Source of the DNA: a virus
Taxonomy: Duplodnaviria; Caudoviricetes
Strand: one strand, 5' to 3'
DNA: 56,482 nucleotides
Virus record (IMG/VR): IMGVR_UViG_3300033485_000014
Location: 1 to 56,482 of that record
Part shown: in pieces, positions 1,574 through 56,482 of the stretch
Layout of the letters: each line of letters opens with the position of its first letter
Numbering within the stretch: position 1 is the stretch's first letter
Made by a program: the position numbers and the translations under genes
Notes under the pieces: model-generated
What the model saw: the letters and a program-made list of their open reading frames with translations, nothing else
Told to the model about the DNA's origin: nothing
Databases searched by the model: none

Positions 1574-1878
1574 GCCGTCGTCGCTCGTCGGCACCAGAGT
1601 CGGCACCGCTCTTCGCGAAGGCGAATGCGGCCGCTATCGCAACCGAGTCGCTCGTCGAATCCGCGAAGCGATGGGACGCACCGGTGACGAAAGTGGCGAC
1701 ATCGAAGGAGCCAGCATCGAAATATCACTGCTCGAAGTGCGGTTCCGAATTGGAGGCTATTGCTCCCTCGATCGAGCCGCCGTGGCCGTACGAGGGAATC
1801 GAATTGGCATGCCCGAAGTGTGAGGGTCCGCTCGAGTTGGTTGACGTAGTGAGGGGTTGGTACCGGAGGGCATCGTGA
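1570..1878 (+). CDS. Zinc-ribbon protein
   Basis: CSKC...CPKC pair. Confidence 0.55.
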   Translation: MSRRRSSAPESAPLFAKANAAAIATESLVESAKRWDAPVTKVATSKEPASKYHCSKCGSELEAIAPSIEPPWPYEGIELACPKCEGPLELVDVVRGWYRRAS

Positions 1879-2660
1879 GCGTCCTTCTCGTTGACCTCTC
1901 CTCCGTTCTTGTCCCTCACTACCACGCTCACGGCAAGCGCATCGGCGGCAACGACACGTGCGACTCGACCGTGTTCGCGATCAATTCGCTCGCGGCGGAG
2001 TACGGCCACGATGGCGTAGCAATCTGCTGCGATGCGCCGGGAGTGCCCACGTGGCGCAAAGAGCTGTGTCCGTCGTACAAGGCGGACCGGCCCCCATGGG
2101 AGGACCTGCTCATCGATCAATACGTCAAGGCCCGTGGCGCACTGGAGCACGGCGCCGGGTATGCAGTGTTCGTTGTGCCTGGGTTCGAAGGTGAGGACCT
2201 CGTTGCTTCCGTGATAGCAAAGCTGTGGAACTCACCGAATCTGCGATTCGTCGTCGCTTCGTCGGATAAGGATGTGGTGCAAATGATCTGCCCGCGCGTG
2301 ACCGTATGGTCACCCGGGAAGAAACGCTTGCTCGATGCCGCCGCCGCACTCGAGATATACGGTGTTCGTCCGAATCAGATCCGCGACTACCTATGCATGA
2401 CTGGCGATGCGAGCGATGGCATTGCGGGCATCAAGGGTATCGGTGAGGTGACAGCGAAGAAGCTGCTCGCGAAGCACGGTACGCTCGAAGAGATCTTGCG
2501 CGTAGCCGGCGGGCCAGCGGCGGCCGAGCTCGGAATCCCGCAGTCGAAAGTGGCCGCACTGCTCGCCGGTTCGGAGGCTGCTGACATAGCGCATCGACTC
2601 GTGACACTACGCAAGGACGCGCCAGTGGATGTGTCGAAAGTGAGAAGGGTAACGCGATGA
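1875..2660 (+). CDS. 5'-3' exonuclease / flap endonuclease (Pol I N-terminal-like)
   Basis: LLVD, WRKELCPSYKADR, GFEGED, SSDKD, and the H3TH motif GDASDGIAGIKGIGEVTAKKLL. Confidence 0.93.
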   Translation: MSVLLVDLSSVLVPHYHAHGKRIGGNDTCDSTVFAINSLAAEYGHDGVAICCDAPGVPTWRKELCPSYKADRPPWEDLLIDQYVKARGALEHGAGYAVFVVPGFEGEDLVASVIAKLWNSPNLRFVVASSDKDVVQMICPRVTVWSPGKKRLLDAAAALEIYGVRPNQIRDYLCMTGDASDGIAGIKGIGEVTAKKLLAKHGTLEEILRVAGGPAAAELGIPQSKVAALLAGSEAADIAHRLVTLRKDAPVDVSKVRRVTR

Positions 2661-3210: not shown

Positions 3211-3404
3211 GCACCTCCGTCGGCTACAGCATGACCGATCCGTGTGCGCAATGCGGCGCCTCAGGCCCCGACCGATGGGTCGAGATCCGGCACACAGACA
3301 ACGGCGATGAGATTGGGGAGTGCATGCAATGCCGGGGGCTGACGGGCGAACGCACGGAGGCGCGGGCAGCGCCAAAGCCTGTGCAAGGAAGATTGTTCGA
3401 ATGA
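3207..3404 (+). CDS. Small zinc-ribbon protein
   Basis: CAQC...CMQC; C-terminal QGRLFE resembles a beta-clamp-binding motif. Confidence 0.5.
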   Translation: MSTSVGYSMTDPCAQCGASGPDRWVEIRHTDNGDEIGECMQCRGLTGERTEARAAPKPVQGRLFE

Positions 3405-4840
3405 CCGTCGCCGCCGTCCACCCCTACTCCGTAGGCTATTGCGGAGTCGTGATCGCGTCCGGAGATGCGCCGCCGTTCCAGGTCGTTGCCACCGAATCGC
3501 TGCCGGTGGGTCACCTCACGACCGACGGTCCGATTGCGCGCGGCAAGAATGCTCGTCGCGAATGCAGTGACGGAGAGGCGGCGGCGCTTGCGCAGACCGT
3601 CATGCGGCAATGCGTGAGCGCTGGTGTGACCCGCATCTTCGTTGAGGCTGGCGCATCGGTGGTGGGCGGCTCCGTGTCGCGTTGGGTGCAATCGCTCGCA
3701 GCAAGCAACGGAATCAGATGCGACGTAATGCCAGCCAGTCCCACTGGCCCTCGCCGCCGCCTGAACATGCATGGGCTGTTCATCGGCTGGCCAGCGCAAA
3801 GCTACACGTCGATCGAGGGCGCTGCCGAGCTGCTCGTAGCAGGGATGAGCGGAGAGGTGCCATCGATCGAGGGAGCTCTCGACCTTCCGTCACTCGACGG
3901 AATGAATGCAGATCAGGACGCGGCGGCAACCACTTTCTTTCCGGAGGCTCCTAGCGCTGCGCCTCAAGCACAAGAGGTGCCCGCGGAGCCTCCCACCACC
4001 ATCCAGTTCACAGGCCCGTGCCGCGCGGGAATCGACCCCGGATCGCGATGGGTTGCCATAGCGATCGCGGACGCAACCGGCACCGTCGTTGCGTGGCGCT
4101 CGTTTGAGGTGGGACACGATCGGCCGCTAGTGAAACCGAAGACGATCAAGCGGAAGGATGGGACCACATACCAGCGCGCAGTCGAACATGTCATCACGTC
4201 TGATGACATCGACGATCTCATCGCGAAGATCGATGAGCTACTGCGAGCATTCGGAGTCAATCGAGCGGTTGTTGAATGGATCGAGCACGCTCGAGTCCCG
4301 GTCAACAATCCAGCGGTAGCCATTGCTCGCGCCACCGAGATCGCTCGTGCGCAATGGGTCGGTGGCGAGATCTGCAGATGGTGCAAGGCGCTGGCGCTAG
4401 TCGACACCGTCATCGACGTGGAAACGGTCGTCTACAAGCAATGGGCTGGTCCCATCTCGCGGGCCTCGACGACGAAGGACATTCGAGACAAGATTCGGCC
4501 CGCCGTGCTTCAGGCGTGCCCGCAGATGACAGCAGCTGATGAGCATGAGCTCGACGCCGCCGGTATCGTCCTGTGGGACATGATGCCAGCAAAGACCGAA
4601 CCTGCAGTGACGGAGCGGAGGCACGTCCGCGCGCCAGAAGGAAGCTACGACAGGGCCGCGGCGAAACGGGAATCGATGCGAGCGCTAGCGGAGCGCAACC
4701 GAGCAAGGAAGCTAGCTGACCGAGCGGCGCGGGGATGCTCGTGTGGACTGAATTCGAATCATCGGAAGACGTGCCCACTGTATGTTCCGCGCAAATACAA
4801 GGCGCAGATGGGGCTACCGTTTGGTAGCAATGAGGAGTGA
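3401..4840 (+). CDS. Tandem RuvC/RNase H-fold protein (degenerate N copy, intact C copy) with C-terminal Zn motif
   Basis: C copy: GIDPGS...VVE...HELDAA; N copy aligns (AVHPYS, VGH, RIFVE, VGG..SRW, EGAA); CSCx5HxxxC tail. Confidence 0.75.
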   Translation: MTVAAVHPYSVGYCGVVIASGDAPPFQVVATESLPVGHLTTDGPIARGKNARRECSDGEAAALAQTVMRQCVSAGVTRIFVEAGASVVGGSVSRWVQSLAASNGIRCDVMPASPTGPRRRLNMHGLFIGWPAQSYTSIEGAAELLVAGMSGEVPSIEGALDLPSLDGMNADQDAAATTFFPEAPSAAPQAQEVPAEPPTTIQFTGPCRAGIDPGSRWVAIAIADATGTVVAWRSFEVGHDRPLVKPKTIKRKDGTTYQRAVEHVITSDDIDDLIAKIDELLRAFGVNRAVVEWIEHARVPVNNPAVAIARATEIARAQWVGGEICRWCKALALVDTVIDVETVVYKQWAGPISRASTTKDIRDKIRPAVLQACPQMTAADEHELDAAGIVLWDMMPAKTEPAVTERRHVRAPEGSYDRAAAKRESMRALAERNRARKLADRAARGCSCGLNSNHRKTCPLYVPRKYKAQMGLPFGSNEE

Positions 4841-5343
4841 CGATGTACTGGTATCGCGTAGAACTCAATTCGAGCGGCAACTGTATCACGTGCACGCAAC
4901 TCGAGCAGTGCGGCGCTCCTGAAGATCCGAATATTTTCTACGTGTGGGCGCCCGACGAGCAGCGAGCGAAAAATACGGCCTACGAGGCATACATAGCGAA
5001 TCATCGCAGGCTCTCCAACGAACGGCGTGTCCGCCTGAAGGCTGAGAGGAAGTGCACTCAATGCGGAACGGATATGCCGAAAGGGGACGACAGGGTAAGG
5101 TGCGGCACCTGCCGCGAGCGCGAGTACGATAACAAGCAGCGGATTGCAGACAGGAAAGCCGGCAAGGAAGTGGTTGCACCATCGAAGCGCATCGCATTCG
5201 CTGAAACGAAAGCGCTCCGGGAGCGAAAGCAGCGCGGAGAGGTGCTGATCGAAGTGCGAAAAGCATGGCGCAGAGCGCAGACCGACGAGCAGTTCTCGGC
5301 TTGGCTCGATGCGCGAATCAAGGAATGTGAGGCATCTCAATGA
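4837..5343 (+). CDS. Zinc-finger hypothetical protein
   Basis: CTQC...CGTC with basic helices. Confidence 0.6.
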   Translation: MTMYWYRVELNSSGNCITCTQLEQCGAPEDPNIFYVWAPDEQRAKNTAYEAYIANHRRLSNERRVRLKAERKCTQCGTDMPKGDDRVRCGTCREREYDNKQRIADRKAGKEVVAPSKRIAFAETKALRERKQRGEVLIEVRKAWRRAQTDEQFSAWLDARIKECEASQ

Positions 5344-5681
5344 GCGGACGATGGGGCTATATTGAAATTATGGGACATCGAAGCCACTTCGGTCTCGTGT
5401 CGGAGATTGATCGGTTCGGAACCAAGATGGCTCTCGTGCAGGTGCCTGACGTGAGCAACAATCCGTCGTCGTTCGTCGCTGAATTCGAATACGGCGGCTC
5501 GGCCGTCTTCTCGTTCACTGTGATGACGGAGGAAGCTGTCAAGACCAGGCTTAGGGCAGAGGCCGAAGCAGAGCGCAAGCGCAAGGAACGGGAGGCTGAG
5601 TGGAATAAGCAATTCGAGATTCCGCAGCTGACCGACGGAGATGACGACGAAGACGAAAAGGATCTCTCTGACACATTTTGA
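5340..5681 (+). CDS. Phage hypothetical protein
   Basis: Coupled ORF; EIMGHR...G motif; acidic tail. Confidence 0.65.
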   Translation: MSGRWGYIEIMGHRSHFGLVSEIDRFGTKMALVQVPDVSNNPSSFVAEFEYGGSAVFSFTVMTEEAVKTRLRAEAEAERKRKEREAEWNKQFEIPQLTDGDDDEDEKDLSDTF

Positions 5682-5689
5682 GGAGCATC

Positions 5690-6295
5690 ATGAAAACACC
5701 TGAAGAATGGGCTGGCGATATCGCTGAGGCACGATCTGACTTCCCCTTCGTCACTTTGCGACAGCTGCTCACTGAGCATGTCCGACAGATTCAGAAGGAG
5801 GCTTTCGAGGCTGGAGAGAACAGCGCGCTGAAGGCGTCAACGAGATCTCTCCGGTCTCAGCTGGTCGAGTTTCACGCAGCTTTTGACCACACCGTGAATA
5901 CGGTGCCAACGATCCCTAGCGATGAGGACGTGCGGTTGCGAGCTCGACTGATCATCGAGGAAGCCTTCGAGGCTCTTGAGTCGATGTTCGACGAAGCTGA
6001 CGGTCGAACTGAATTCGATAGACATAAGCGGGAGGTGCTAAAGGAATGCTCGTTTGGCCGAGTCAACGTCGACATGTCTGATCTGGCCGACGCGCTAGGA
6101 GATATCGACTACGTCGTTGAGGGCACTCGTCTCACGTTCGGAATTGACGGCACTCCGATCGCCGTCGAGATCCATCGGTCCAACATGGCCAAGGTGGGCG
6201 GCGTCAAGGACAAGCATGGCAAGCTCCAGAAGCCCGCTGACTGGACACCTCCGGATATCGAGGGCGAACTCCGCAAGCAGGGGTGGAAGGAGTAG
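5690..6295 (+). CDS. MazG-like / PRA-PH family nucleotide pyrophosphohydrolase
   Basis: LIIEEAFE, LADALGDIDYVVEG, EIHRSNMAK, GKLQKP motifs. Confidence 0.88.
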   Translation: MKTPEEWAGDIAEARSDFPFVTLRQLLTEHVRQIQKEAFEAGENSALKASTRSLRSQLVEFHAAFDHTVNTVPTIPSDEDVRLRARLIIEEAFEALESMFDEADGRTEFDRHKREVLKECSFGRVNVDMSDLADALGDIDYVVEGTRLTFGIDGTPIAVEIHRSNMAKVGGVKDKHGKLQKPADWTPPDIEGELRKQGWKE

Positions 6296-6298
6296 CCC

Positions 6299-7621
6299 GT
6301 GTCCGATTCCACCAAGCGAATGATCGACGCTAGGCGCCGGAAGATCGACGCGCCCCCGATTACGCCGTCGACCATCATCGTCAACGCTCAGCCAGCAAAG
6401 CGCGCATCGATACGCAACTTCATGTCGGAAGGACCCACCGAAGATGAGGGCGAAGACCAGTCCGAGCGATGGGGAAACATCCTGCTTCAAGCCCAGGCAT
6501 TTCACTCCAACCCACACATGGGCAACTTGCTGTGGGTTGATTCACGGTGCGTCGCCGCCGGCATGCACCCCATGGATGAAGTCTGGAAGCGACACTTCTG
6601 CGACTTCTACGAAAGCGGCAAGCGAATCGACGCCGGTCGCTTCGGTTTGCGAGCCGCGAAGTCCGACTCGTGCATCAGGGCTACCGTCGCAGAAGTCCTG
6701 ATGACGCAGCGGCAGCTTGAGCCTGGTCAGGCCGGCGTGTGCCCGATCATCTCTGCGAACATGTCCGAGGCGTCTGACCGGTTCGACACGGCCGTCAAGG
6801 TTCTGGCCGCATGCGGCCTCCGTGAGGCCAAGCGCAATCTGAAAGACAAGTTCGGATTCCAGCAAGCGGGCGGCGGCACTCAGGGTCACACGATCTTCAC
6901 GTTCGACTCGCAAGGGCACCCCGTCGAGATGCGGATCTATTCGTGCTCGGTTGCTGGCGTCATTGGCTACACTGGCATCGCCGGCTTCTTCGACGAGCTT
7001 GATAAGTGGGGGAAGGACCTCGGGGCGAACCCGGCCGAGCGAGTGATGGATCTCGCCTTGCAGCGATACACTACGCAACCCACTGCGCGAGTGCACGCAA
7101 TGAGCGCTTCGTACTTCGAGAAGTCGTATCACCGCCGAATGATCGATGAGGGCGACACTCCGTTGCAGCGTGTCGCAAGGCTAGGTCTGCTCGGGGCGCG
7201 CCGCGACGAGGAGTCGCGGAAGCGGCTGTACGAAGAGATCAAAGACGACCCCGCACAGAAGGGCAATCCGGATCTGGAGCTGCTACTCGAGCCCGCGGAC
7301 CCAATGTCTGTTGACATTCCGTGCTGGGTCACGAATCCGGTCGCTCCCATCGAAGAGTGCTACAAGAGCAACAAGGGCCGAATTCGGCAGATGCTGGCAC
7401 TGAGCGGAGGCCGGGCTGCATACAACGTCGGCGTGGCCGGGGTAGTCAATTTCGACGGTCTGGCCGAAGCGAACCTACGCTTGCAGTCGAGCGACCGAGG
7501 TCGCGAGCGCACAATCGACGGCGCAGAGCACCGGTACATGGGCGACGTCGGGAGATGCTACGATGGGCCATCGCATGACCCGAGGTCGTTTTCGCACGGG
7601 AGAGGGAGAGGAGTGTTGTAG
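6299..7621 (+). CDS. Terminase large subunit-like packaging ATPase, apparently lacking the nuclease domain
   Basis: Terminase-type Walker A variant GRFGLRAAKS, ANMSEASDRF, Walker B GFFDE, coupling motif MSAS, PCWVTNP; only a short tail follows. Confidence 0.7.
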   Translation: MSDSTKRMIDARRRKIDAPPITPSTIIVNAQPAKRASIRNFMSEGPTEDEGEDQSERWGNILLQAQAFHSNPHMGNLLWVDSRCVAAGMHPMDEVWKRHFCDFYESGKRIDAGRFGLRAAKSDSCIRATVAEVLMTQRQLEPGQAGVCPIISANMSEASDRFDTAVKVLAACGLREAKRNLKDKFGFQQAGGGTQGHTIFTFDSQGHPVEMRIYSCSVAGVIGYTGIAGFFDELDKWGKDLGANPAERVMDLALQRYTTQPTARVHAMSASYFEKSYHRRMIDEGDTPLQRVARLGLLGARRDEESRKRLYEEIKDDPAQKGNPDLELLLEPADPMSVDIPCWVTNPVAPIEECYKSNKGRIRQMLALSGGRAAYNVGVAGVVNFDGLAEANLRLQSSDRGRERTIDGAEHRYMGDVGRCYDGPSHDPRSFSHGRGRGVL

Positions 7622-7627
7622 CTTCAA

Positions 7628-7837
7628 ATGCTGATTCATCTGCTCAAACTACTTTGGTTGCGCATTCAATACCTCCTGCATCCAAACGCCTTTCACAGAT
7701 GCTCCGTGTGCGGTCAGTCTGACCGACACAGCGACACGTGCCTCGCTTGCACCTGCACCCTGTGCGCTTGGCGGTATGAATGCCCATCGGCGTGGGACAT
7801 GTACAATAGCGACGGTGATTGCTTGGATTTGAAGTAA
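7628..7837 (+). CDS. Small Cys-rich protein
   Basis: CSVC, CLACTCTLC; coupled to the next gene. Confidence 0.5.
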   Translation: MLIHLLKLLWLRIQYLLHPNAFHRCSVCGQSDRHSDTCLACTCTLCAWRYECPSAWDMYNSDGDCLDLK

Positions 7838-8271
7838 TGCGCAAACTCAAAACCCTTCCCCCAATGCACTGCGATCCGGGCTGCGGAGACTGTTGCGGCC
7901 CGGCGCCGTGCACGGAATCTGAGTATCAGCAGATCGTTCGTTACATCGATCGCAACGGCATCATCCCAATCAACGGCGGGCTCACGTGTCCGCTGCACAT
8001 CAATGGTCAATGTGCTGTCTACGACGTGCGCCCGCTCACGTGCAGATTGTTCGGCCACACCGAGCGGATGCCATGTCCGCGAGGGCACTCGGTCTTCGTC
8101 GACGAGCGCCAGATCGAGCGGATGTGGCGAGCGCACGGGAAAGCGACGAGGTTGCCACACGAGCTCATTCCGGGATTGATCGAGTGCCTGCCAGAGCTAT
8201 TCGAGCGCGAGCGCGAGGCTATCACGCCATCGTTCCGCGAGCTGCTCGCGAATAGAGGGGTCAATGTGTGA
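7837..8271 (+). CDS. YkgJ-family (CxxCxxCC) Fe-S/Zn cysteine-cluster protein
   Basis: CDPGCGDCCG, CPL, CAVYDVRPLTCRLFG. Confidence 0.85.
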   Translation: MRKLKTLPPMHCDPGCGDCCGPAPCTESEYQQIVRYIDRNGIIPINGGLTCPLHINGQCAVYDVRPLTCRLFGHTERMPCPRGHSVFVDERQIERMWRAHGKATRLPHELIPGLIECLPELFEREREAITPSFRELLANRGVNV

Positions 8272-9003: not shown

Positions 9004-9367
9004 AGCGTTGACAGCTATGTGTGCGGATTCTCGCCGTCGGTTCTGGTGCCGCGTTCAAGGTGAAGTGTATTCAGGCGGAACCAAAACGCGCGACATTAGC
9101 GTCTTGTGCAGCGTCGTAGGATCCGCGCTGGTAGCTCATTCGGACCCATCTAGCCGCGACCATTACACCTCCTACCTGTCGGTCACCGACGCTCTCCGAG
9201 GGGACTGGGAGGAGTTCGTGGAGACGCACGGCTTCGAGTGGGCGAGGGAGCAGCTCAAAGCGGGACGACTAGTCGCCCGGCGGGCGACCGCAAACGTAAA
9301 GGCCTACGACGCCGCATCTCGCCTATCGCTAGAGGATATTGACGCTACCGATTGGATGCTGGCGTAA
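8990..9367 (+). CDS. Hypothetical protein (DUF2829-like ends)
   Basis: GGAGG RBS; MKFVEAL start and DIDATDW end. Confidence 0.6.
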   Translation: MKFVEALTAMCADSRRRFWCRVQGEVYSGGTKTRDISVLCSVVGSALVAHSDPSSRDHYTSYLSVTDALRGDWEEFVETHGFEWAREQLKAGRLVARRATANVKAYDAASRLSLEDIDATDWMLA

Positions 9368-9380
9368 GGACGGGACGGTC

Positions 9381-9623
9381 ATGATTCGAGGATACTGCAA
9401 AACCAACCTGGATGAATACAAGCACGAGGACTGGCCGACGGCGTTCGTGTCTCTGCCGCGAAAAGGGGATTGGGTGCAAGCCAAAAGCGGTAAGGTCCTT
9501 TGCGTGTGCCAGGTGACGCACTGCCAAGCATACTCGTCAGACACTATGCCCAGATTCGACAGGCGCCCCATCCAAGTAGGGGATCCGTTCATTATCGTGG
9601 AACTAACGGGATGGGGCCAATGA
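9381..9623 (+). CDS. Hypothetical protein
   Basis: ORF within the operon. Confidence 0.55.
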   Translation: MIRGYCKTNLDEYKHEDWPTAFVSLPRKGDWVQAKSGKVLCVCQVTHCQAYSSDTMPRFDRRPIQVGDPFIIVELTGWGQ

Positions 9624-9834
9624 TCGCTCACCACCATCCCGACGGCCAGGTCCTATCCTGCCCGTGCGGCGCGAGGCTGTTCGATCCGAAGCCTTATGCC
9701 CCTGATGTCACCGACGGATTCGTGCCGCGCGAGCGGACACAGAGATGCATGACGGGGGCTGCCGCACAAGCGGGTAAGCCGAATCGGATTCGGTCAGCCC
9801 CTCCAAACCAACAGCAACAGAAACGAGGTACCAG

Positions 9835-10365
9835 ATGCAATTATCAATAGTGCCGTACTACGCGGCGATGGCTACATGCGCATTCCTCCTGCTCGTATCA
9901 TTCACGGGTGTCGCGTGGTGCATTGCGCAGATCTGGCGCCGCACTCGCCTCACCCCCCAACAATGGGAGAAGCGCATGTCGGAGATCGCGATGCGCAGCA
10001 GCAGGGTTCAGTTCGACGTGAGTATGCTGCGATCGGGCCTGGTCCGAGGCCCGTACGAGCGTCCGTATCAGGCCTGGAAAAGATGGCAGTATGTCATCGA
10101 TAGACGAAGCGAACTCCGCTTCGCTGCCGCCCGCATCTTCTGCAAGCTGACCGGATGGTCTGCAAACACTGGAGTACGCATCGTTGTGGACAGGTTCTGG
10201 ACAGTACACATCTACTCTCCGTTCGTGCTATTACACATCAGGGAATGGGAGAAGGTCATATCTGCCGCGCTGGACGGGGCGCACGTTCGCATTCATAACC
10301 AGCCTGCCCTCCTGCCGGTGTGTTCTGAAGACGACTGCGATCGACGGGTATCCTATTCCCTATGA
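9835..10365 (+). CDS. Membrane-anchored hypothetical protein
   Basis: GAGG RBS; N-terminal hydrophobic helix. Confidence 0.6.
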   Translation: MQLSIVPYYAAMATCAFLLLVSFTGVAWCIAQIWRRTRLTPQQWEKRMSEIAMRSSRVQFDVSMLRSGLVRGPYERPYQAWKRWQYVIDRRSELRFAAARIFCKLTGWSANTGVRIVVDRFWTVHIYSPFVLLHIREWEKVISAALDGAHVRIHNQPALLPVCSEDDCDRRVSYSL

Positions 10366-11507: not shown

Positions 11508-14500
11508 ATGGCGAATGCTGCATCGGACGATAGGCAGGCGAAACTTCTCGGACTCATGGCGGACGGAGTGTCTCTTCGTGCCGCTGCTGCTGCCGTAGGG
11601 ATTCCGAAGTCGACTGCTTCGGACATGGTCCGCTCATCTCGCAGCGGACCGTCCGGAATAGCATCCAATCAGGGCACACCGGGAGTCCCGTTCTCCGGAG
11701 CAATCGAGCCGCCCGCATCTGTTCCGCCGCTGGACTGGAACAACGATCAGACTGCTCCACCACCCGATCCCCTCGTGTTCCGAGAGGGATACCACGATCG
11801 GTCGTTCCGTCAGTACATGGCCCCGCTCGCGTTCGATGGGTGGGACCTTGACCGGGTACGCAACGCCATTTCGATGCACTGTCAGGGCATCTTCCTCGAG
11901 AGCTCGCAGCTGGCAATCGCGGTCTCACGATTCGGCCCGGTGACTGCCGCACTCAAGCAGCGTGTGGCGCCAGCCCTCGGGCGCCCTCGACAGGTGCACG
12001 CTGGAACCAGGGGCCTATCCAAGGTGCTAGGCCGCGAGATAGAGCGACAGCTGGCCCCTCGTCTTGGACTGCGTCCGTCTCCCTACTTCCCTCCGATTCT
12101 TTGGGGCTCGATCGGAATCGATCTGGCGATGATGGGATTCTCCGTGCTTCAGCATGCGTACGGAGCACCCAATCCGGACACCGGAATTCGCATGGTCTAC
12201 ACGCGCCGATGGCCGACGTGGGCAGTGCAGTATTGGCGCCCTCGTCGTACGTTCATTGCAATGACGACGGAGGGGCCAGTTGACATCATCTCCGGCGATG
12301 GCAAATTCACGCTCGTCGCCGATAGTGAAGAGCCGCATCTCGAGGCCGCTATCATCCCCCTCGGAGAAGAGGCACTCGACGGGAAGTCCACCCAACGGGC
12401 GCGCGCGTCGTATGTAGACAAGTACGGCAATCCGAAGTGGGTTGGCATCATGCCTCAGGGGGTTGCGGTCCGCTCCAAGGAAGGCGATGCGTTCTTCGAT
12501 GCGCTGGCCACGATTCGTGGCCCCGACGGGTACGGAGCGATTCCTTTCGGTTCCCAGCTGGACATCAGGGGGCTGACGAGCGGCCAGTCGGACACGTTCA
12601 AGGATGCGCTTGAGTCCAACTGGCAATACGTGGCGGCCATCCTGCTCGGCTCCGATGGGACAATGACCCGAGGTACCGGAGTCTACAGCGCACCGATCTT
12701 CGCTGGAGTGAGACGCGATCTCGTCGAGAGGGACCTCAAGGCAGAGATTCGAGCAGTGAACTGCGGGCACGTAGCTCCGTGGCTCGCGTTCAACTACGCA
12801 TCCTCGATCGCTGAGGCAAGAGGGTGGATAGATCCTGTGTTCGATATTCCCTTGCCTGATCCAGATGCGGACGCACGCATCGAATCAATCGGCAAGAGGA
12901 CGAAGATGTTCATTGAGATCCAGAAGGCGAAGGCTGATGCTGGATTCGAGGTCTCCCAGGACAGCGTTGACGAAGATGCTGCGACGTTCGAGATTGAAGC
13001 ACCGAAGCTTGCCGTGTCGGAGAATAAGAGAGTTCCCATCGACGTTCCGCCCACCGAGAGAGCGAAGGTCGTCAAGGTCAGGGAGCTGCGCAGCAACATG
13101 GGTCTGGAGCCGCTCGGGACCGATCGGGACGATGCGCTTTTGGCTGATCTGGACAAGACGCAACCGGAGGGTGAACAAGGCTCTGAAGCGTCGGGTGACG
13201 AACCGGTGGCAACGGAGGCCACGGAAGGCGAGCAGGAATCGTCAAGCGAGGCCACGGATCATGGGGGCACATCAACCGGCGGCAAGCAAGGTAAAGCGCT
13301 AGCTGGTGAGTTTCAGTGGATGGTCACATTCGCCCGCGATGATTGGCAGGCGGATATCATCGACGCGATCACCGATCGAACCAAGATGACGTGCCCGCAT
13401 TGCGCTGGAGTGATTCGGGACGAGTCCGACGTGATGCGTGGGTGGTATTGCATCCACTGCGGAGGCAAGTGGGAAGAATCGAAGCATCCGCGAAAGGGCG
13501 GAAAGTTCGCGAAGAAAGGTGAAGGGGACGGGGGCGCGAAGAGGGAAGCGGAACCGAAGAGGCCGGCAGCGAAGAAAACTGATGCGCAAAAGAAGAAGGA
13601 AGCGGCGAAGAAAGCCAAAGAGAAGGAGCGCGAAAAGGCCAAGCGAGCGAAGGCCAAAGAGGCAGAGAAGAAGCGCAAGGCCAAAGAGAAGACGGAGGCA
13701 GCGAAGCGGAAGACGGCGAAGAAGCCTGCCAAGAATGCGTCCGCCAAGAAGGCTCCGAAGAAGGCAGCTGCCAAGAAGCCGGCGAAGCGGAAGACGGCGA
13801 AGAAGCCTGCCAAGAATGCGGCGCCGAAAAGAAAGGCAGCGAAGAAGCCAACTGCAAAGCCGTCCGATAAGAAGCCCGGGACCGCGGAGCCGAAGAAGAA
13901 GTCACCCACGCCTGAGCCTGAGCCTGAGAAGAAACCCGAAAAGAAGAAGCTTGATCCGGACAAGTACAAGGACATTCAGGACGATCCTAAGCCAGAAAAG
14001 AAGCCAGCTAAGAGCGGTACGCACCCTCACGATCCGGAGCATTGGGAAGAGCACTACAAGCATCTAGGATATGCAGCGAAGCATGCCGCCTACGGACATG
14101 CCATGAATGAGCGCGGACTGGACATGCCGCCCAAGGAAGCCGCCGATCATCTTCGTGGAATGGCCAAGCGCAACAAGATGTTTGAGGAAGCTGTGTGGTA
14201 TCTGGAGGATCTGCACTCTAGGGGATACAAGTCTATCAGAGAACTGAAGAAAACAGATCCTGAAGCCGGCGCAGCCCTGTCGGCCATTACCGCCCTCGCG
14301 GCACACAGCAAAGAGTTGAAAGCATCCGGCGGGACCATGTCAGCCAAAGGTCAGCTCACCGTCAACAAGGAGACGATGGGCAATGAACTGGCAATGGGCA
14401 TGGTCAAGTCGGCCAGGGACTTCTATCAGACATTCGCCGCATCAGGTAGAACCTTCGGAAAGGTCAGCATTCAACTGGAGCCAGGAAGAGCTAGAGCTGC

Positions 14501-14897
14501 ATACTACCCGAGCAAGAACAAGGTTGCCTACAACGCATCGCCCGGAAGCAACCCCGCTGTGATTGAGCACGAGCTGGGGCACTGTCTGGCCGGAAACAAC
14601 AAGGACATTTCAGACGCAGCGTCTGAATTCTTTCACGCCAGAACGAAGGGTGAGACGCTTCAACCAATAAAAACCAAGAAGAAGGCCGACGAGTTCTACG
14701 GAAAGGAAGAGGTCTGTCTCCCCGACAAGTTCATGAGCAGATACATGGGTCGTGTGTACTCAGACGAAAGTAAGCCAGAAGGAACAGAGATCGTGTCAAT
14801 GGCGTGCGAGTATCTAGCCAGGGAACCTCACACGTTGTTCACCAAAGATCCGGAGATGTTCCACTTCATTCTTGGGGCACTCAAAGGAGTCAAGTGA
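11508..14897 (+). CDS. Portal protein fused to an N-terminal HTH and C-terminal Zn-ribbon, K/A-rich and HExxH metallopeptidase regions
   Basis: HTH (GVSLRAAAAAVGIPKSTASDMVR); Mu gp29/DUF935-like portal motifs (GFSV, YVDKYGNP, AAILLG, ELRSNMGLEP); WEESKHPRKGGKF; VIEHELGH...EIVSM...DPEMFHFILG. Confidence 0.8.
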   Translation: MANAASDDRQAKLLGLMADGVSLRAAAAAVGIPKSTASDMVRSSRSGPSGIASNQGTPGVPFSGAIEPPASVPPLDWNNDQTAPPPDPLVFREGYHDRSFRQYMAPLAFDGWDLDRVRNAISMHCQGIFLESSQLAIAVSRFGPVTAALKQRVAPALGRPRQVHAGTRGLSKVLGREIERQLAPRLGLRPSPYFPPILWGSIGIDLAMMGFSVLQHAYGAPNPDTGIRMVYTRRWPTWAVQYWRPRRTFIAMTTEGPVDIISGDGKFTLVADSEEPHLEAAIIPLGEEALDGKSTQRARASYVDKYGNPKWVGIMPQGVAVRSKEGDAFFDALATIRGPDGYGAIPFGSQLDIRGLTSGQSDTFKDALESNWQYVAAILLGSDGTMTRGTGVYSAPIFAGVRRDLVERDLKAEIRAVNCGHVAPWLAFNYASSIAEARGWIDPVFDIPLPDPDADARIESIGKRTKMFIEIQKAKADAGFEVSQDSVDEDAATFEIEAPKLAVSENKRVPIDVPPTERAKVVKVRELRSNMGLEPLGTDRDDALLADLDKTQPEGEQGSEASGDEPVATEATEGEQESSSEATDHGGTSTGGKQGKALAGEFQWMVTFARDDWQADIIDAITDRTKMTCPHCAGVIRDESDVMRGWYCIHCGGKWEESKHPRKGGKFAKKGEGDGGAKREAEPKRPAAKKTDAQKKKEAAKKAKEKEREKAKRAKAKEAEKKRKAKEKTEAAKRKTAKKPAKNASAKKAPKKAAAKKPAKRKTAKKPAKNAAPKRKAAKKPTAKPSDKKPGTAEPKKKSPTPEPEPEKKPEKKKLDPDKYKDIQDDPKPEKKPAKSGTHPHDPEHWEEHYKHLGYAAKHAAYGHAMNERGLDMPPKEAADHLRGMAKRNKMFEEAVWYLEDLHSRGYKSIRELKKTDPEAGAALSAITALAAHSKELKASGGTMSAKGQLTVNKETMGNELAMGMVKSARDFYQTFAASGRTFGKVSIQLEPGRARAAYYPSKNKVAYNASPGSNPAVIEHELGHCLAGNNKDISDAASEFFHARTKGETLQPIKTKKKADEFYGKEEVCLPDKFMSRYMGRVYSDESKPEGTEIVSMACEYLAREPHTLFTKDPEMFHFILGALKGVK
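13701..13820 (+). repeat. 39-bp direct repeat in the K/A-rich linker
   Basis: GCGAAGCGGAAGACGGCGAAGAAGCCTGCCAAGAATGCG at 13701-13739 and 13782-13820. Confidence 0.9.
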
Positions 14898-43700: not shown

Positions 43701-45152
43701 GTGGTGAGCGTGGGCACCTACGAAGAATTCATTGCTTCCAAGCGGTTCGCCGATCCTCCGACAGGAATCACGCACGACGTCGACATCAATCCGATGCTCT
43801 TCGAATGGCAGCGTGACATCGTGCGATGGGCGTTGCGCCGAGGACGCGCAGCGATGTTCGAGGACTGCGGCCTAGGGAAAACTGGGCAACAGCTCGAATG
43901 GGCCAAGCATGTCGCGTACTCCTCGGACCCGGGAGGCCACGTCCTCATTCTGACTCCTCTTGCTGTAGCTCAGCAGACAGTGCGCGAGGCCGAGAAGTTC
44001 GGAATCCAACGGGTCAACTACGTCCGATCTCAGGAGGAGATCGGGGGCGACTTCGGCATCTGGATCACGAACTACGAGATGCTGGACCGGTTCGATCCGT
44101 CGATGTTCCGTGGAGTGGTGCTTGACGAGTCAAGCATACTCAAGAGTTTCGACGGCTCCACTCGGACGAAGCTCATCGAAGCGTTTCGCGAGACTCCGTT
44201 CCGACTCGCGTGCACCGCCACGCCCGCACCTAATGACCATATGGAGCTCGGTAACCACGCCGAGTTTCTTGGCGTCATGACGCGCGCTGAGATGTTGTCG
44301 ATGTTCTTCGTTCACGACGGGGGCGAGACTCAGAAGTGGCGCATCAAGGGCCATGCTCGCGACGCATTCTGGAAGTGGGTATGCAGCTGGGCGGTGAACC
44401 TGCGGAAACCGTCAGACCTGGGCTATTCTGATGACGGGTTCATACTTCCGAAGCTACACATCCACCACCACGTCGTCGAGTCCGATATGGAAACGGCCCG
44501 TCAGCAAGGACTTCTGTTCCAACTCGAGGCTCGCACATTGGCCGAGCGCCGCAGTGCGCGGAAGGCTTCGACGGACGCAAGAGTGGCTCTCATCGCCGAG
44601 ATGGTGAACCACTCAACAGATCCGTGGCTCGTATGGTGCAACCTGAACGCGGAAGGCGACGCACTCGAGAAGGCAATACCGGACTCGGTGCAGGTGGCTG
44701 GCTCAGATTCGATTGATGACAAGTCAGAACGGTTGCTAGGGTTTGCTGCTGACAAGTACCGCGTACTCGTTACCAAAAGTAAAATAGCAGGTTTTGGCAT
44801 GAATTGGCAACACTGCGCAAACGTCGCATTCTGCGGACTCTCCGATTCCTGGGAACAGTACTACCAGGCCATTCGGCGATGCTGGCGCTTTGGCCAGAAG
44901 AACGAGGTCCACTGCCACATCGTGACGAGCGACGCAGAGGGGGCCGTTGTGGCGAACATCCAGCGGAAGGAAGCGGAGGCGGCGGAGATGGCGGCGGAGA
45001 TGATCGCGAACATGTCGGTTGCCAACTCAGAAGCGCTGCGAGGAACGCGCAGGGACTCGGTGGCGTATGAGCCGAGGGTGGAGATGCGAATACCGGAATG
45101 GCTGAAGGGAGGATGCGGTGAAACTGACGGACTTCCGACGATCGAACACTAG
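43701..45152 (+). CDS. SNF2-like SF2 helicase (methyltransferase-associated)
   Basis: DCGLGKT, LDESS, TATPAPND, GFGMNWQ, QAIRRCWRFGQ. Confidence 0.93.
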   Translation: MVSVGTYEEFIASKRFADPPTGITHDVDINPMLFEWQRDIVRWALRRGRAAMFEDCGLGKTGQQLEWAKHVAYSSDPGGHVLILTPLAVAQQTVREAEKFGIQRVNYVRSQEEIGGDFGIWITNYEMLDRFDPSMFRGVVLDESSILKSFDGSTRTKLIEAFRETPFRLACTATPAPNDHMELGNHAEFLGVMTRAEMLSMFFVHDGGETQKWRIKGHARDAFWKWVCSWAVNLRKPSDLGYSDDGFILPKLHIHHHVVESDMETARQQGLLFQLEARTLAERRSARKASTDARVALIAEMVNHSTDPWLVWCNLNAEGDALEKAIPDSVQVAGSDSIDDKSERLLGFAADKYRVLVTKSKIAGFGMNWQHCANVAFCGLSDSWEQYYQAIRRCWRFGQKNEVHCHIVTSDAEGAVVANIQRKEAEAAEMAAEMIANMSVANSEALRGTRRDSVAYEPRVEMRIPEWLKGGCGETDGLPTIEH

Positions 45153-47609: not shown

Positions 47610-49253
47610 ATGTACTCACTATACAACTATCAGAGTGAATGCATTCGCCGGGTCCAGTGGTTGATACGCAACGGAACTAGACGGATTGTCATCGTTCTTC
47701 CTACGGGCGGAGGAAAAACTCTTGTGGGTGCATCGATCATCATGTCTGCACTGCAGAAGGGGAATCAGTCAATTTTCCTTGCGCATCGACGTGAGCTCAT
47801 CAAACAGAGCTTTTGCAAGCTGGTCCGTTCAGGCGTCGGCCCGGATGACATCGGTATCATCATGGCTGACGCCGGGCTTGGACATCAGCCGGAGACAAGC
47901 ATTGACCCGTCACAGCTTGACGATGCGCAACTGTGGAAGCTTGGGGCCCGATCTCGATCCTCCGCCCCGGTACACATCGCATCGATCGACACGCTTCGCA
48001 ATCGGCGCGCGCCACCGGCCAAGATCGTGATGATCGATGAAGCGCACCGCGCGCTATCGCCGTCCTATCTACGAATGCTCGATATCTACACCGATGCCGT
48101 GCATATCGGCCTCACGGCTACCCCATGGCGAGCGGACGGCCGAGGGCTCGAGGAGTACTATCAAGCGCTCGTGGTAGGAGCCACACCATCGAAGCTCATC
48201 GCTGAAGGCTTCATCCTTGAGCCTCGAGTGTTCCTGCCGCCGCGAGAGGACCTTCCCGACCTATCTCGCATCCGTATCGTCGCAGGAGACTACGACGAGC
48301 GTCAGCTGTCTGTTGCTGTCGATCAGGATCGGCTCGTCGGGAACATCGTTGACCACTGGTTCCGCGAGGCTCGCGGAATACGAACCGTGGTGTTCCCCAC
48401 ATCGATCGCGCACAGCAAGCATCTCGTCGAACGCTTCAATGATGCCGGGGCCAGGTTCGAGCATCTCGACGGCGGAACGCCAGCACGAGAGCGAGACGCA
48501 ATTCTGGCTCGCCTAGATCGACACGAGATCGATGGCGTGTCGTCGTGTGACGCTCTGTCCGAAGGGTGGGACCAGCCGCCAGTGAAGTGCGCGATCTTGG
48601 CCAAGCCAACCCGATCGCTGACGAAGTATCTGCAGAAGGCGGGGCGCATTCTACGCCCTTGCCCCGGGGCGCCACAGCCGATCATTCTCGACCATGCTGG
48701 ATGCTCCCTGGATCTGAATTGCCTTCCACAGGATGACCAGGATTACTCGCTTCAGCCGCCGCCGAAGCGCAAGCGAAGCCAGGCTCAAGTGCCCAGAACA
48801 TCGTGGTGTCCGAAGTGCTGGGCAATGCTTCCCGCGGGGACGAAGGTGTGCCCTCGGTGCGGGTTCGTGTTCCCAAAGGAAGCGACGCCCAAGGTAGACG
48901 TATCGGAGTCCGACGGGACGCTCGTTGAAGTGCGCGCCATCACGATCGAAGAGAAGCGTCAGGTGTGGGAATCTCTGTGCAGGAAGGCAGTTGAGGCTGG
49001 GTATGCTGACGGATGGATCCGACATCAGTTCTCGGGCAGATTCGGATGCAAGCCTCCAGACGGATTCGCTCTGCCGAAGCGTGAACGACCGCCAGCAACC
49101 GACGAAGAGAAGCAGGTGGCGCTGGCATCGCTGAACGACCTGGCCAAAGCGAAGGGATACAAGCCCTACTGGGTGCTCAGGAGATTCGTGGCAAAGTTTG
49201 GGTGCCCTCCGCCGAAGCTGGAGGAGAGTAAGCAAGTGGAGATGAAGACATGA
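47610..49253 (+). CDS. DEAD/DEAH-box SF2 helicase with Zn ribbon
   Basis: PTGGGKT, DEAH, TAT, EGWD, QKAGRILR, CPKC...CPRC. Confidence 0.95.
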   Translation: MYSLYNYQSECIRRVQWLIRNGTRRIVIVLPTGGGKTLVGASIIMSALQKGNQSIFLAHRRELIKQSFCKLVRSGVGPDDIGIIMADAGLGHQPETSIDPSQLDDAQLWKLGARSRSSAPVHIASIDTLRNRRAPPAKIVMIDEAHRALSPSYLRMLDIYTDAVHIGLTATPWRADGRGLEEYYQALVVGATPSKLIAEGFILEPRVFLPPREDLPDLSRIRIVAGDYDERQLSVAVDQDRLVGNIVDHWFREARGIRTVVFPTSIAHSKHLVERFNDAGARFEHLDGGTPARERDAILARLDRHEIDGVSSCDALSEGWDQPPVKCAILAKPTRSLTKYLQKAGRILRPCPGAPQPIILDHAGCSLDLNCLPQDDQDYSLQPPPKRKRSQAQVPRTSWCPKCWAMLPAGTKVCPRCGFVFPKEATPKVDVSESDGTLVEVRAITIEEKRQVWESLCRKAVEAGYADGWIRHQFSGRFGCKPPDGFALPKRERPPATDEEKQVALASLNDLAKAKGYKPYWVLRRFVAKFGCPPPKLEESKQVEMKT

Positions 49254-49951: not shown

Positions 49952-51832
49952 ATGCCGGCCCAAGTTGTGAAACTCAGGGGGGCCGGAATCAGCGGGACGC
50001 CTCGCCGAAGCAGCGGCGGACCAGGAGACACGATCGACGATCGTCCAACGATTCGGATCGTTGAAGGCGACTTCAAGCGGATGGTGGAGCAAGCTACCTC
50101 AGCGCTCACTCGCGACGAATATGTGTATCAACGAGCTGGGGATCTGGTAGCGCTCACCAAAGAACCGGACCTGTTGCAGGAGCTGGAAGCTGGTCGAACG
50201 AATGATGTGCTCACCGCTCCCGGTGCACCTGTTCTTCGCAAGCTCAACGTGGCGTCACTTCGCGTTCGTTTGGCTACGGTGGCAAAGTGGGAAAAGTGGC
50301 AGAGACCTAGAGCAACGGGGGATGATGGGGAATGGGTTCCGTCGCATCCGTGCAGGGACACTACGTCCGCAGTGCTCGAGGCGACCACGTCGGGAGGATG
50401 GCCAGGCATTCGTCCCATCCGGGGAATCATCGAAGCCCCAACGCTTGCGCCGTCAGGACGAATCATATCCAAGCCCGGGTACGACAGGGAGACGGGCTAC
50501 GTGCTTATTCCGTCGATTCAGGTTCCAGACATCGGGGAGCATCCAACACGGGAGCGAGCGCGTGCCGCCCTTCGGTATCTATGGATCGAACTGTTCAGTG
50601 ACTTCCCGTACGTGTCTCTAGGAGAGGCGCATCCAAGGGACGTTGACCGAAACGAGCGATACAAGAAGGCTTGCCTGGTGCCAGATGCTTTCGTCGGCAT
50701 AGCAGCGCTTCTCACGATGTTCGCAAGACCGGCCGTCTGCGGAGCGACCCCAGGATTCGTTTTCGAGGCTGCGTCGCAAGGCTCCGGCAAGTCACTACAG
50801 ATGGATGTTGTTTCGATGGTGACCGTGGGACGATCGGCGGACATGCGCACATTCCCGTCGCACGATGGGAAGGTCGACGATCCGGAGCTCGAAAAGATTC
50901 TTGCTTCATGTGCACTATCTAACAGACGCATGATCGCGTTCGACAACGTCAAGGGCACGGTCGGAGGAGCTGCGCTCGAGCAGCGTATGACGGCCACGGA
51001 TAGATCCTCTTTCCGAGTGCTAGGCCGCACTGAAGAGCAATCTCTGCCATGGTCGGCCGTCATGCTGTTCTCAGGAAACAACATGACCATGTCCGACGAC
51101 GTGGCGCAACGCACTGTTGTCTCTCGGCTTGAGTCCTCTCGAGAGGATCCGCGATCGAGGGACCCTTCGGAATTCAGGCATCCACAACTGCTCGAGTGGA
51201 TCCGAAACAATCGACCCAAGTTGGCGCAGGCGTGCCTGACCATACTTCGGGCCGCGTCGATCGGGCAAAAGGCCAACGCTGGCAGCTGGGGCAGCTTCGA
51301 ACCTTGGGCGAACATCGTGGCGAACGCGATTGTGTTTGCCGGCGGGCCAAGTGTGCTCAATGCTAGACCGAAGCAGGATTCGGCCGATGCTGGCGAGGGT
51401 GGTGCGCATTCGACGCTGATGCGATGCTGGCCAGAGGAGTTCCTGTCCGAGGGCGTACGATCGGCAGCACTAGTGCGTAAGGCATTCGCCGAGGAAGCCG
51501 CGATCATGAAAGGCACTTCTCCGGACGATGGCATGGGCGACCTTCGCGATGCACTAAGAGAACTGACTGAGACTCCAGACAACCGGATACCAAGCGCCAT
51601 CAAGCTAGGACAGATCCTCCGACGGTTACGCGGCAAGTGGCGCGACAATCGGAAATTGAATTCGTCAAAGGACGGAAAGGGCTTCACCCTATGGATCGTG
51701 CAGGAGAAGGAAAACGCAATCATCAGAGCGGAAGATCAGACCGACCTGCCGATGGCGCTGCCGCCTCCGACCGAAGAGCAAACTCCGGAGCAGGCAATGG
51801 CAGACCCGGCGGAGGAATGGGGCAGGGAGTAG
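49952..51832 (+). CDS. Replication P-loop ATPase/helicase of the primase-associated type, no primase domain recognised
   Basis: GIIEAPTL...PGYDRETG, QGSGKS, FDNV, SGNN, QR. Confidence 0.75.
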   Translation: MPAQVVKLRGAGISGTPRRSSGGPGDTIDDRPTIRIVEGDFKRMVEQATSALTRDEYVYQRAGDLVALTKEPDLLQELEAGRTNDVLTAPGAPVLRKLNVASLRVRLATVAKWEKWQRPRATGDDGEWVPSHPCRDTTSAVLEATTSGGWPGIRPIRGIIEAPTLAPSGRIISKPGYDRETGYVLIPSIQVPDIGEHPTRERARAALRYLWIELFSDFPYVSLGEAHPRDVDRNERYKKACLVPDAFVGIAALLTMFARPAVCGATPGFVFEAASQGSGKSLQMDVVSMVTVGRSADMRTFPSHDGKVDDPELEKILASCALSNRRMIAFDNVKGTVGGAALEQRMTATDRSSFRVLGRTEEQSLPWSAVMLFSGNNMTMSDDVAQRTVVSRLESSREDPRSRDPSEFRHPQLLEWIRNNRPKLAQACLTILRAASIGQKANAGSWGSFEPWANIVANAIVFAGGPSVLNARPKQDSADAGEGGAHSTLMRCWPEEFLSEGVRSAALVRKAFAEEAAIMKGTSPDDGMGDLRDALRELTETPDNRIPSAIKLGQILRRLRGKWRDNRKLNSSKDGKGFTLWIVQEKENAIIRAEDQTDLPMALPPPTEEQTPEQAMADPAEEWGRE

Positions 51833-53870: not shown

Positions 53871-54361
53871 TGGTTGGTGGTTTCGGCGGGCTCGGGTACC
53901 GCCGTGGCTTCCGCGACTGGATACGGAACAGAGAGGGCAGTAATAGCTCCCACCTCAGCGAAAGCCTTTCTGATCTTCTCCGCTTTCGTCGCGCTCACTT
54001 TTGCGACAACGCGCGTGGGGCACGATTCGACCAGATCCTTGGCCTCCGCCAGACCCATTCCCGTTAGAGCGCGCACGGTCCTGACGCACGGAATCTTGTT
54101 GCCGCCTGCGTCCACGAGCATGACGTCGAACTTCGGGGCGGACACGTCGGTCGCGGCCTCGACCTCACTCAGCTCAGCCCGCAGGCCAGCGATGGTCGCG
54201 TTTGCCCGGGACAGCTCCTCCCTGGCAGCGAAGAGGCCGCATTCCGCGCTCTCGCGAGCGCTGTTGCAGCGGTCCAATTTCGTTCGCAGCGACTCCGTCT
54301 CGGTCACGGCAGCTTCATACTTGCCGAGTAGCAGCCTGAACATATCGATGGTGGTATCCAT
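53867..54361 (-). CDS. Ribosomal protein bL12 (L7/L12) C-terminal-domain protein with N-terminal coiled coil
   Basis: KFDVMLVDAGGNKIPCVRTVRALTGMGLAEAKDLVESCP...KAEKIRKAFAEVGA closely follows the bL12 CTD consensus; AGGAG RBS. Confidence 0.88.
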   Translation of the reverse strand: MDTTIDMFRLLLGKYEAAVTETESLRTKLDRCNSARESAECGLFAAREELSRANATIAGLRAELSEVEAATDVSAPKFDVMLVDAGGNKIPCVRTVRALTGMGLAEAKDLVESCPTRVVAKVSATKAEKIRKAFAEVGAITALSVPYPVAEATAVPEPAETTNQ

Positions 54362-54417
54362 GGTGTCTCCTATTGATTGGGGTTGGTGCGCTCCCGGCAA
54401 TAGCCCCATATGTGGAA

Positions 54418-56363: not shown

Positions 56364-56482
56364 CTCTCTCCCTCTCTCCACCTCACTCTACGTCCCTCCG
56401 TTCTCATACGCAAGCATCAATCGCGCATCGTCACATATCGCCACGCTCACATCGCTCATCCCCCCGCCGCCACGCCTCATAC
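56356..56482 (-). repeat. Right inverted terminal repeat, 127 bp
   Basis: Reverse complement matches 1..127 base for base. Confidence 0.97.
56385..56413 (-). promoter_or_regulatory. sigma70-like promoter in right ITR (mirror copy)
   Basis: Identical copy of 70..98 on the minus strand, upstream of the ATG at 56363. Confidence 0.6.

Follow-up and report, generated by a model that had tools for sequence, protein, structure and literature searches.

A tandem RuvC-family protein with one degenerate and one intact active site, encoded near an ATPase-only large terminase in a tailed-phage genome

The known RuvC enzymes are symmetric homodimers, and the poxvirus resolvase A22 is a homodimer of single-domain subunits. 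Duplicated nuclease folds that cleave asymmetrically are known from Mus81-Eme1 and XPF-ERCC1, in which one subunit is dead, and from the single-chain pseudo-dimers of the LAGLIDADG type. In textbook tailed-phage packaging, ATPase and nuclease reside on one polypeptide, the large terminase subunit TerL (excerpts of PMC5389665), and the TerL nuclease is itself described as RuvC-like (excerpts of PMC5389553); in Skunavirus, an HNH gene adjoins the packaging genes (excerpts of PMC12967558). Here we analysed a 56,482-bp stretch of DNA (the window), which represents the full IMG/VR virus record IMGVR_UViG_3300033485_000014, is classed in IMG/VR as bearing inverted terminal repeats (ITR) and has a CheckV completeness of 100%. 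At positions 3401 to 4840 it encodes an unusual tandem RuvC-family protein that is genetically tied to an ATPase-only TerL.

Architecture, fold and active sites of the tandem RuvC protein

The protein, P0001, is composed of the following parts:

3401-4840, plus strand: tandem RuvC-like protein P0001, 479 aa (open reading frame and translation; 107 relatives; AlphaFold2 model)
3401-3853, plus strand: N-terminal degenerate RuvC-like domain, residues 1-151 (hhalign, VIA, conservation)
3854-4012, plus strand: Pro/Ala-rich linker, residues 152-204 (predicted disordered; variable in the family alignment)
4013-4597, plus strand: C-terminal intact RuvC domain, residues 205-399 (VIA, conservation)
4643-4729, plus strand: basic alpha-helix, residues 415-443 (DSSP; predicted local distance difference test, pLDDT, about 94; Arg/Lys-rich in the family alignment)
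4736-4774, plus strand: CCHC zinc knuckle C446-x-C448-x5-H454-x3-C458 (conserved in the family)

The start was placed at 3401 because relatives of P0001 open with M-x-x-A-A-[VI]-x-P, as does the translation from this ATG, because AGGAAG is located 10 nt upstream, and because the start codon overlaps the stop codon of a 57-aa open reading frame (ORF) as ATGA. The longer form of the identical gene proposed by the gene caller (P0002, extended by 24 aa) is probably too long.

A preliminary description of this gene had proposed an internal duplication from five motif pairs, and all five were recovered in the translation of 3401-4840: AVHPYS (residues 5-10) and GIDPGS (210-215), VVATESLPVGH (28-38) and VVAWRSFEVGH (229-239), GVTRIFVE (75-82) and GVNRAVVE (285-292), VGGSVSRW (87-94) and VGGEICRW (320-327), and IEGAA (138-142) and ELDAA (383-387). 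The Pro/Ala linker, the basic helix and the subsequent CxCx5Hx3C motif (446-458) that it had listed are present as well. Within the single sequence the repeat is marginal, as a BLASTP comparison of the N half with the whole protein aligned 82 aa at 27% identity with an E-value of 0.006. The comparison of family profiles is decisive. A HMMER search of 1.84 billion representative proteins of all lengths yielded 107 relatives of P0001 at E<=1e-3, 77 of which reach E<=1e-10. P0049 (1,624 aa, repetitive) was left out as spurious, and the 106 retained matches were aligned together with P0003. The resulting 107 sequences comprise 71 tandem proteins, 28 single-domain proteins that start a few residues before GIDPGS, and 8 fragments or proteins with other N-termini; for some single-domain forms the gene call may have been cut short (P0023 shares its cluster with a protein of 487 aa). 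Profiles of the N domain (residues 1-150, n=71) and the C domain (residues 205-400) were aligned by hhalign over 142 columns, i.e., the entire domain, at 99.5% and E 2.5e-23, and the same two profiles scored 0.2% and 0.3% against the TerL ATPase family as controls. By this profile-profile comparison, the internal duplication is real.

The hhalign register pairs H7 with D212, E82 with E292, S137 with H382 and G140 with D385, so that the His and the Gly of the N copy had been correctly assigned opposite Asp residues of the C copy. D212 is conserved in 101/101 and E292 in 105/105 sequences without a gap at the respective column, and D385 in 107/107, while the H382 column holds 101 His and 6 Asp among the 107 relatives. 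The columns of G214 and A386 are nearly invariant, and within the knuckle C446, C448 and C458 each occur in 104/107 and H454 in 101/107 sequences. Across the 71 tandem members, the N-domain equivalent of D212 is never acidic (0/71; mostly Ile, Val or Leu) and that of H382 is never His (0/71). The equivalent of D385 is acidic in 8/71, and that of E292 is Glu in 51/71 and Asp in 5 more. With H7, E82, S137 and G140, the N domain of P0001 retains only the Glu of the metal-binding tetrad, both Asp residues and the His being lost; the C domain has a complete D-E-H-D set, located in the model on strands 1 and 4 and on the last helix, the positions of the RuvC tetrad. The losses across the tandem members indicate that the N site is dead family-wide, beyond a single phage, and the arrangement of one dead and one intact active site first proposed for this protein thus applies across the family.

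The AlphaFold2 model of P0001, computed with the 107-sequence alignment, reached a mean pLDDT of 86.8 and a predicted template-modelling score (pTM) of 0.56. Residues 158-185 have a pLDDT below 50 and are predicted to be disordered, and residues 415-443 form a long helix. The top 10 Foldseek matches in the PDB were all RuvC or the chloroplast resolvase MOC1. In VIA-align, residues 205-396 were superposed on RuvC of P. aeruginosa (6lw3) with Z 19.2 and a root-mean-square deviation (rmsd) of 2.2 Å over 150/153 residues. Six further bacterial RuvC entries gave Z 17-18.5, and the comparison with RuvC of T. thermophilus, D. radiodurans and E. coli, MOC1, RuvC of phage bIL67 and the poxvirus resolvases spanned Z 13-18.5. 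The N domain (residues 1-151) matched YqgF/RuvX (7w89) with Z 11.4 over 114 residues (rmsd 3.3) and the RuvC region of Cas12g with Z 10.7 (model residues 1-151/161). An RNase H/RuvC-like fold is accordingly predicted for each half, for the N half by the YqgF/RuvX match together with its homology to the C half. Among the viral proteins of BFVD, none matched both domains (TMq <=0.30), and the top 50 were nearly all single-domain RuvC-like proteins of about 150-240 aa. Two-domain Foldseek matches to phosphatases and kinases of the acetate and sugar kinase/Hsc70/actin (ASKHA) type, spanning 420-478 columns, had TM scores of 0.15-0.26 and an rmsd of 17-24 Å and were rejected as a model of the domain arrangement.

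Curated sequence models hardly see the family. P0001 matched 0 Pfam families at E<=10, and the Pfam RuvC model PF02075 matched 3/107 members at E<=0.01 (best E 9.5e-4). The family profile reached RuvC in the PDB with E 3.8e-4 and P0001 reached phrog_1770 with E 0.018, and one family member is named 'Holliday junction resolvasome RuvABC endonuclease subunit' by IMG. A phmmer search of the PDB with P0001 returned acyl-CoA dehydrogenases at E 0.018, which is chance level, and nothing else. Its predicted fold and its active site place the C domain among the RuvC-family nucleases, while by curated sequence models it stands outside Pfam RuvC. The relatives form a family of roughly 100 clusters from metagenomic phages. 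A tblastn search with P0001 found no match in 50,697 GenBank phage records, and no relatives were found in viral_contigs for P0001, P0004, P0021 or the TerL alignment A4, in genome_contigs for P0003, or in metagenome_contigs for P0004.

A nuclease-less large terminase and its linkage to the RuvC gene

The ORF at 6299-7621 has no match in Pfam and PHROG. It carries the Walker A residues K121/S122 and the Walker B residues D232/E233, of which K121, D232 and E233 are invariant in 32 sequences; a conserved motif is also visible in the C-terminal tail in the TerL alignment (A4). The AlphaFold2 model (pLDDT 81.7, pTM 0.74; residues 376-440 with low confidence) matched the following terminases:

HK97 TerL: Z 20.2, 244 residues aligned, model residues 70-376 on chain residues 1-273 of 479
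P74-26 TerL ATPase domain: Z 19.6
D6E TerL: Z 18.2
T4 gp17: Z 17.9, chain residues 81-360
Sf6 gp2: Z 16.0

All these matches are limited to the ATPase domains and end at about model residue 376, identifying the protein as an ATPase of the additional strand, conserved glutamate (ASCE) type. At least 57 homolog clusters exist besides its own; they are similarly short, and many are on contigs of 56-60 kb. In 201 Myxococcota genomes around a metagenome-assembled genome (MAG) described below, more distant TerL relatives occurred in 22 further genomes, mostly within open frames of some 460-700 aa. Six of these longer relatives, with lengths of 476-604 aa, have 200-260 extra residues with D...D/E...HDD motifs, which are deleted in the TerL of the window. 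This extra region matches TerL nuclease structures (5m1q and 5m1f, E 2.3e-6; 5tge, 1e-5), and one of the six relatives reaches Pfam Terminase_6C with 21.7 bits. When the nuclease region was searched against all six frames of the window, tblastn gave a best E of 0.39 and hmmsearch no match; likewise, Terminase_6C (PF17289), TerL_nuclease (PF20441), Terminase_3C (PF17288) and HNH each had 0 matches at E<=1. The ATPase-only fold matches, the deletion relative to the six longer relatives and the six-frame result together uphold the earlier description of this TerL as nuclease-less; it has lost its nuclease domain. Against the nuclease profile of the longer relatives, hhalign gave 7.9% for the C domain of the tandem protein and 24.5% over 48 columns for its N domain. 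The tandem protein is therefore not a detached TerL nuclease and, if it acts in the role of one, was recruited from a resolvase lineage.

The genes for TerL and the tandem RuvC protein are part of one co-directional group:

3231-3404, plus strand: 57-aa ORF with CxxC...CxxC (zinc-ribbon), its stop overlapping the RuvC start
4837-5343, plus strand: 168-aa ORF with CxxC pairs, the first of three ORFs between the RuvC gene and TerL
within 4837-6295, plus strand: 113-aa ORF with a PHROG match (phrog_29525)
5678-6295, plus strand: MazG-like pyrophosphatase (PHROG match), the last ORF before TerL
6299-7621, plus strand: ATPase-only large terminase P0114, 440 aa (VIA, conservation, comparison with longer relatives)

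From the 57-aa ORF to the MazG-like gene, successive genes overlap by 4 nt; TerL begins 3 nt past the end of the MazG-like gene, and the distance between RuvC gene and TerL is 1.46 kb. Small ORFs with Cys pairs of zinc-ribbon-like type occur around both genes (3231-3404, 4837-5343 and 7819-8271), the last of which matches Pfam CxxCxxCC. Two closely related metagenome contigs (L002 and L003) also carry a tandem RuvC protein, which is 38% identical to that of the window over the C half, and 0.5 kb upstream of it an equally short TerL of 396 aa with 29% identity to the TerL of the window. RuvC and short TerL genes are thus linked in two divergent lineages. In addition, RuvC P0004 and TerL P0115 stem from contigs of identical length (17,229 bp), as do P0007 and P0131 (12,903 bp). 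No TerL-RuvC fusion was present among the 107 matches of the length-unrestricted search.

The Polyangiaceae MAG G001 contains a short TerL (733 bits) on its contig C158, and from this gene onward C158 and the window are syntenic. Among the 201 Myxococcota genomes, G001 is the sole genome with a full-length short TerL, and the only strong match to the RuvC family (433.9 bits) was found there. The 22 genomes with longer TerL relatives gave no strong RuvC-family match in a stricter first pass, which may miss weak matches. In this small sample, the family is hence not found equally in phages with full-length TerL, the outcome that the preliminary description had named as counting against its proposal. 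The RuvC gene of G001 (contig C288, here L008; 6506-8005) encodes a diverged tandem protein with 23% identity to that of the window. On the same contig, 1.1 kb downstream of it, lies a HerA/FtsK-type ATPase (9089-10162), which runs off the contig, is labelled 'terminase large subunit' by PHROGs (phrog_2666) and has a DNA methyltransferase nearby.

Coupling to packaging and competing explanations

We favour the explanation that the tandem protein is a DNA-maturation endonuclease coupled to packaging, and assign it a probability of roughly 0.55. The C domain would cleave phosphodiester bonds of branched or junction DNA in replicating phage DNA by the two-metal mechanism of RuvC, with the basic helix and the zinc knuckle adding DNA affinity. 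The endonuclease would partner the nuclease-less packaging ATPase, either by clearing branches like T4 endonuclease VII or by making cuts of the TerL-nuclease type; between a branch-clearing resolvase and a trans-acting terminase nuclease the chances appear about equal. The replication genes of the window, together with a nuclease gene upstream of the RuvC gene, bear on this explanation:

1857-2660, plus strand: 5'-3' exonuclease/flap endonuclease (Pfam 5_3_exonuc_N, 1.2e-20; 5_3_exonuc, 1.2e-19)
43701-45152: SNF2-type helicase, replication gene
47610-49253: ResIII-type helicase, replication gene
49952-51832: primase-helicase, replication gene

Among the ORFs of the window that were scanned, only this primase-helicase and the two helicases, and no phage DNA polymerase, were recognised. 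Protein-primed, unit-length replication of the phi29 type therefore appears unlikely, and some enzyme would have to trim or debranch the DNA.

It is about an even bet whether the dead N domain stands in for the partner subunit of a RuvC dimer, which would result in an asymmetric enzyme with one active site that cuts one strand per binding. Retention of the N copy in 71/107 members speaks for this arrangement, as does the fact that, to our knowledge, all characterised RuvC relatives are homodimers. Otherwise, the C domains may homodimerise and the N domain may serve as an accessory module that binds DNA or a partner. The more specific proposal that a clade of 56-60 kb tailed phages, probably infecting Myxococcota, swapped the TerL nuclease for a trans-acting, asymmetric live/dead RuvC pseudo-dimer is tentative, and we rate it as doubtful.

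Several observations weigh against the pseudo-dimer or against coupling to packaging. As regards the pseudo-dimer, the linker of about 48 residues is disordered and the pTM of the model is only 0.56. In a quick tree of 104 C domains, which is poorly resolved (12/101 branches starred), the single-domain forms (28/107 members) interleave with tandem forms and force at least 5 changes, suggesting that a lone C domain can function. As regards the coupling, linkage was sampled in few cases, namely two independent TerL lineages and one MAG; in this MAG, the two genes lie on separate contigs (C288 for RuvC and C158 for TerL), and the 4.1 kb preceding TerL on the related phage contig (L004, i.e., C158) contain no RuvC-family gene. 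Pairing with TerL by contigs of the same size in bp was obtained for 2/20 RuvC clusters, most contigs being too short for both genes, and is too indirect a measure to establish absence. Finally, unit-length replication of an ITR genome, as in phi29, needs no motor nuclease according to excerpts of PMC13595956, and under such replication the resolvase could be a general recombination enzyme.

Such an enzyme, i.e., a generic Holliday-junction resolvase of a recombination or replication module with an accessory N domain and only incidental nearness to TerL, is an unlikely but serious alternative. It accounts for canonical resolvases as the top fold matches, for the IMG name of one member and for the existence of single-domain members, and it is in line with the flap endonuclease gene 0.7 kb upstream and with L004, in which no RuvC-family gene adjoins TerL; incidental nearness, however, sits poorly with a gene that adjoins short TerLs in two lineages sharing 29% TerL identity, with the overlaps of translational-coupling type in the window, and with the missing strong matches in the 22 genomes with longer TerL relatives.

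The ends of the record suggest a further alternative. The preliminary description had implied inverted repeats at the ends of the record, and these are present, the branch point being seen in the assembly graph:

1-127, no strand: 127-nt left arm of the terminal inverted repeat, with 100% complementarity to 56356-56482
56356-56482, no strand: right arm; its branch point also occurs in Logan contigs of the runs X1, X3 and X4

The arms diverge at nt 128. Each ends with GGAGAGAGGGAGAGAG, a purine run resembling a ribosome-binding site, followed by ATGATGGC; with the latter begins an inward ORF that differs between the two arms. Four Logan runs were examined as assembled contigs, all from a single study that is shared with the record. 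A contig of X1 ends at nt 98, 30 nt short of the divergence, and in X3 and X4 loose ends continue past nt 127 into the right arm. As the Logan contigs break or branch at the same point, the inverted-repeat topology is reproducible. The length of 127 nt equals what we take to be the largest k-mer of the metaSPAdes settings of the Joint Genome Institute (JGI), so the repeat may be longer than recorded and its outer part possibly absent.

The phage might accordingly have a linear ITR genome, possibly with hairpin ends, in which the tandem protein would resolve cruciform head-to-head junctions as poxvirus A22 does. Since the junctions would then be resolved into unit genomes, the packaging ATPase would need no nuclease. 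The perfect repeat with its ITR class and CheckV completeness, the recurrence of the branch topology in three runs and the shared ends of the arms fit a telomere or concatemer-junction resolvase, and so do the matches to poxvirus resolvases at Z 13.2-14.0 and the absence of any polymerase or protelomerase noticed among the ORFs scanned. The same contigs, however, would arise from a segment capable of inversion or from a longer repeat that was collapsed, the repeat has the size of the assembler k-mer, and no sign of hairpin ends was seen; the runs, being assembled contigs, cannot show the ends of molecules. An enzyme with one active site is, moreover, a poor fit to symmetric junction resolution, and altogether we consider this explanation improbable.

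An RNA-guided or mobile-element nuclease (RuvC of the TnpB, IscB or IS110 type), or a nuclease for host takeover or anti-defence, is very improbable. In its favour, RuvC domains of IscB, IsrB, the IS621 recombinase and Cas12g occur among the fold matches (Z 10.7-13.1), the RuvC domain is followed by a zinc finger, and the gene on G001:C288 is located upstream of the HerA/FtsK-type ATPase and near the DNA methyltransferase. Against it, these fold matches are well below those to canonical RuvC (Z 17-19), the RuvC domain is contiguous and without TnpB or IscB insertions, Rfam had 0 matches in the window (novel RNAs would escape Rfam), and the gene is not bordered by repeats or transposon ends.

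Further genes identified in the window encode tail sheath, tape measure, baseplate and head maturation protease, a DNA methylase and a lytic transglycosylase in addition to the MazG-like pyrophosphatase; no small terminase subunit was identified in the window. Four regions make up the 1,129-aa product of the ORF at 11508-14897: a helix-turn-helix region at the N terminus, a second region that is conserved in L004 and represents a weak portal lead (Atlas score 0.86, a lead only), a third region of Lys/Ala/Pro-rich repeats with direct repeats at 13696-13877, and a C-terminal portion that contains an HELGH motif and matches phrog_33618. The stretch 54343-55044 holds a 27-nt unit repeated in tandem at least 18 times; on the minus strand, in ORF 54418-55323, these units code for repeats of nine residues such as SARVDSVRD and SARVGSVYG.

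Comparison with known systems

Literature searches covering 8.1 million papers in PMC and 0.36 million preprints yielded no description of a tandem live/dead RuvC protein with a CCHC knuckle tied to a nuclease-less terminase, nor of an ATPase-only motor with a trans-acting asymmetric endonuclease of the RuvC type. If the link between RuvC protein and TerL is functional, it would offer a naturally occurring physical separation of translocation from cutting, which would help to dissect the signalling of packaging termination. It would also be a natural case of a resolvase that duplicated and decayed into an enzyme with one active site, as is otherwise known for Mus81-Eme1 or XPF-ERCC1 in eukaryotes. 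On a conservative reading, the data still define a so far uncharacterised family of RuvC proteins in which a CCHC knuckle is conserved and which is barely seen by Pfam (3/107).

Like the TerL of the window, gp16 of phi29 is a packaging ATPase without nuclease activity (excerpts of PMC13595956 and PMC7672431). The phi29 protein keeps a vestigial nuclease domain, whereas the TerL of the window has no counterpart of its relatives' nuclease region, and phi29 replicates by protein priming, whereas no protein-primed polymerase was found among the window ORFs scanned. The TerL nuclease domain of G20c/P74-26 is also a two-metal nuclease of the RNase H/RuvC-like type that acts in genome maturation (excerpts of PMC5389553). 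Its absence from the TerL of the window leaves a role that the tandem protein may fill; the tandem protein, however, is structurally far nearer to canonical RuvC, with no detectable derivation from the TerL nuclease. With bacterial and phage RuvC (E. coli, P. aeruginosa, T. thermophilus, bIL67), the C domain shares the fold over nearly the whole chain (Z 15-19) and the catalytic D-E-H/D-D arrangement. Unlike these enzymes, the tandem protein adds a dead N-terminal copy, a long linker, a basic helix and a CCHC knuckle, and it is too dissimilar in sequence for the Pfam RuvC model. The A22-type resolvases of fowlpox and canarypox share the RuvC fold, and the virus record described here ends in inverted repeats. 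With Mus81-Eme1, XPF-ERCC1 and the LAGLIDADG enzymes, the tandem protein shares by analogy the concept of one catalytic copy, while folds and lineages differ.

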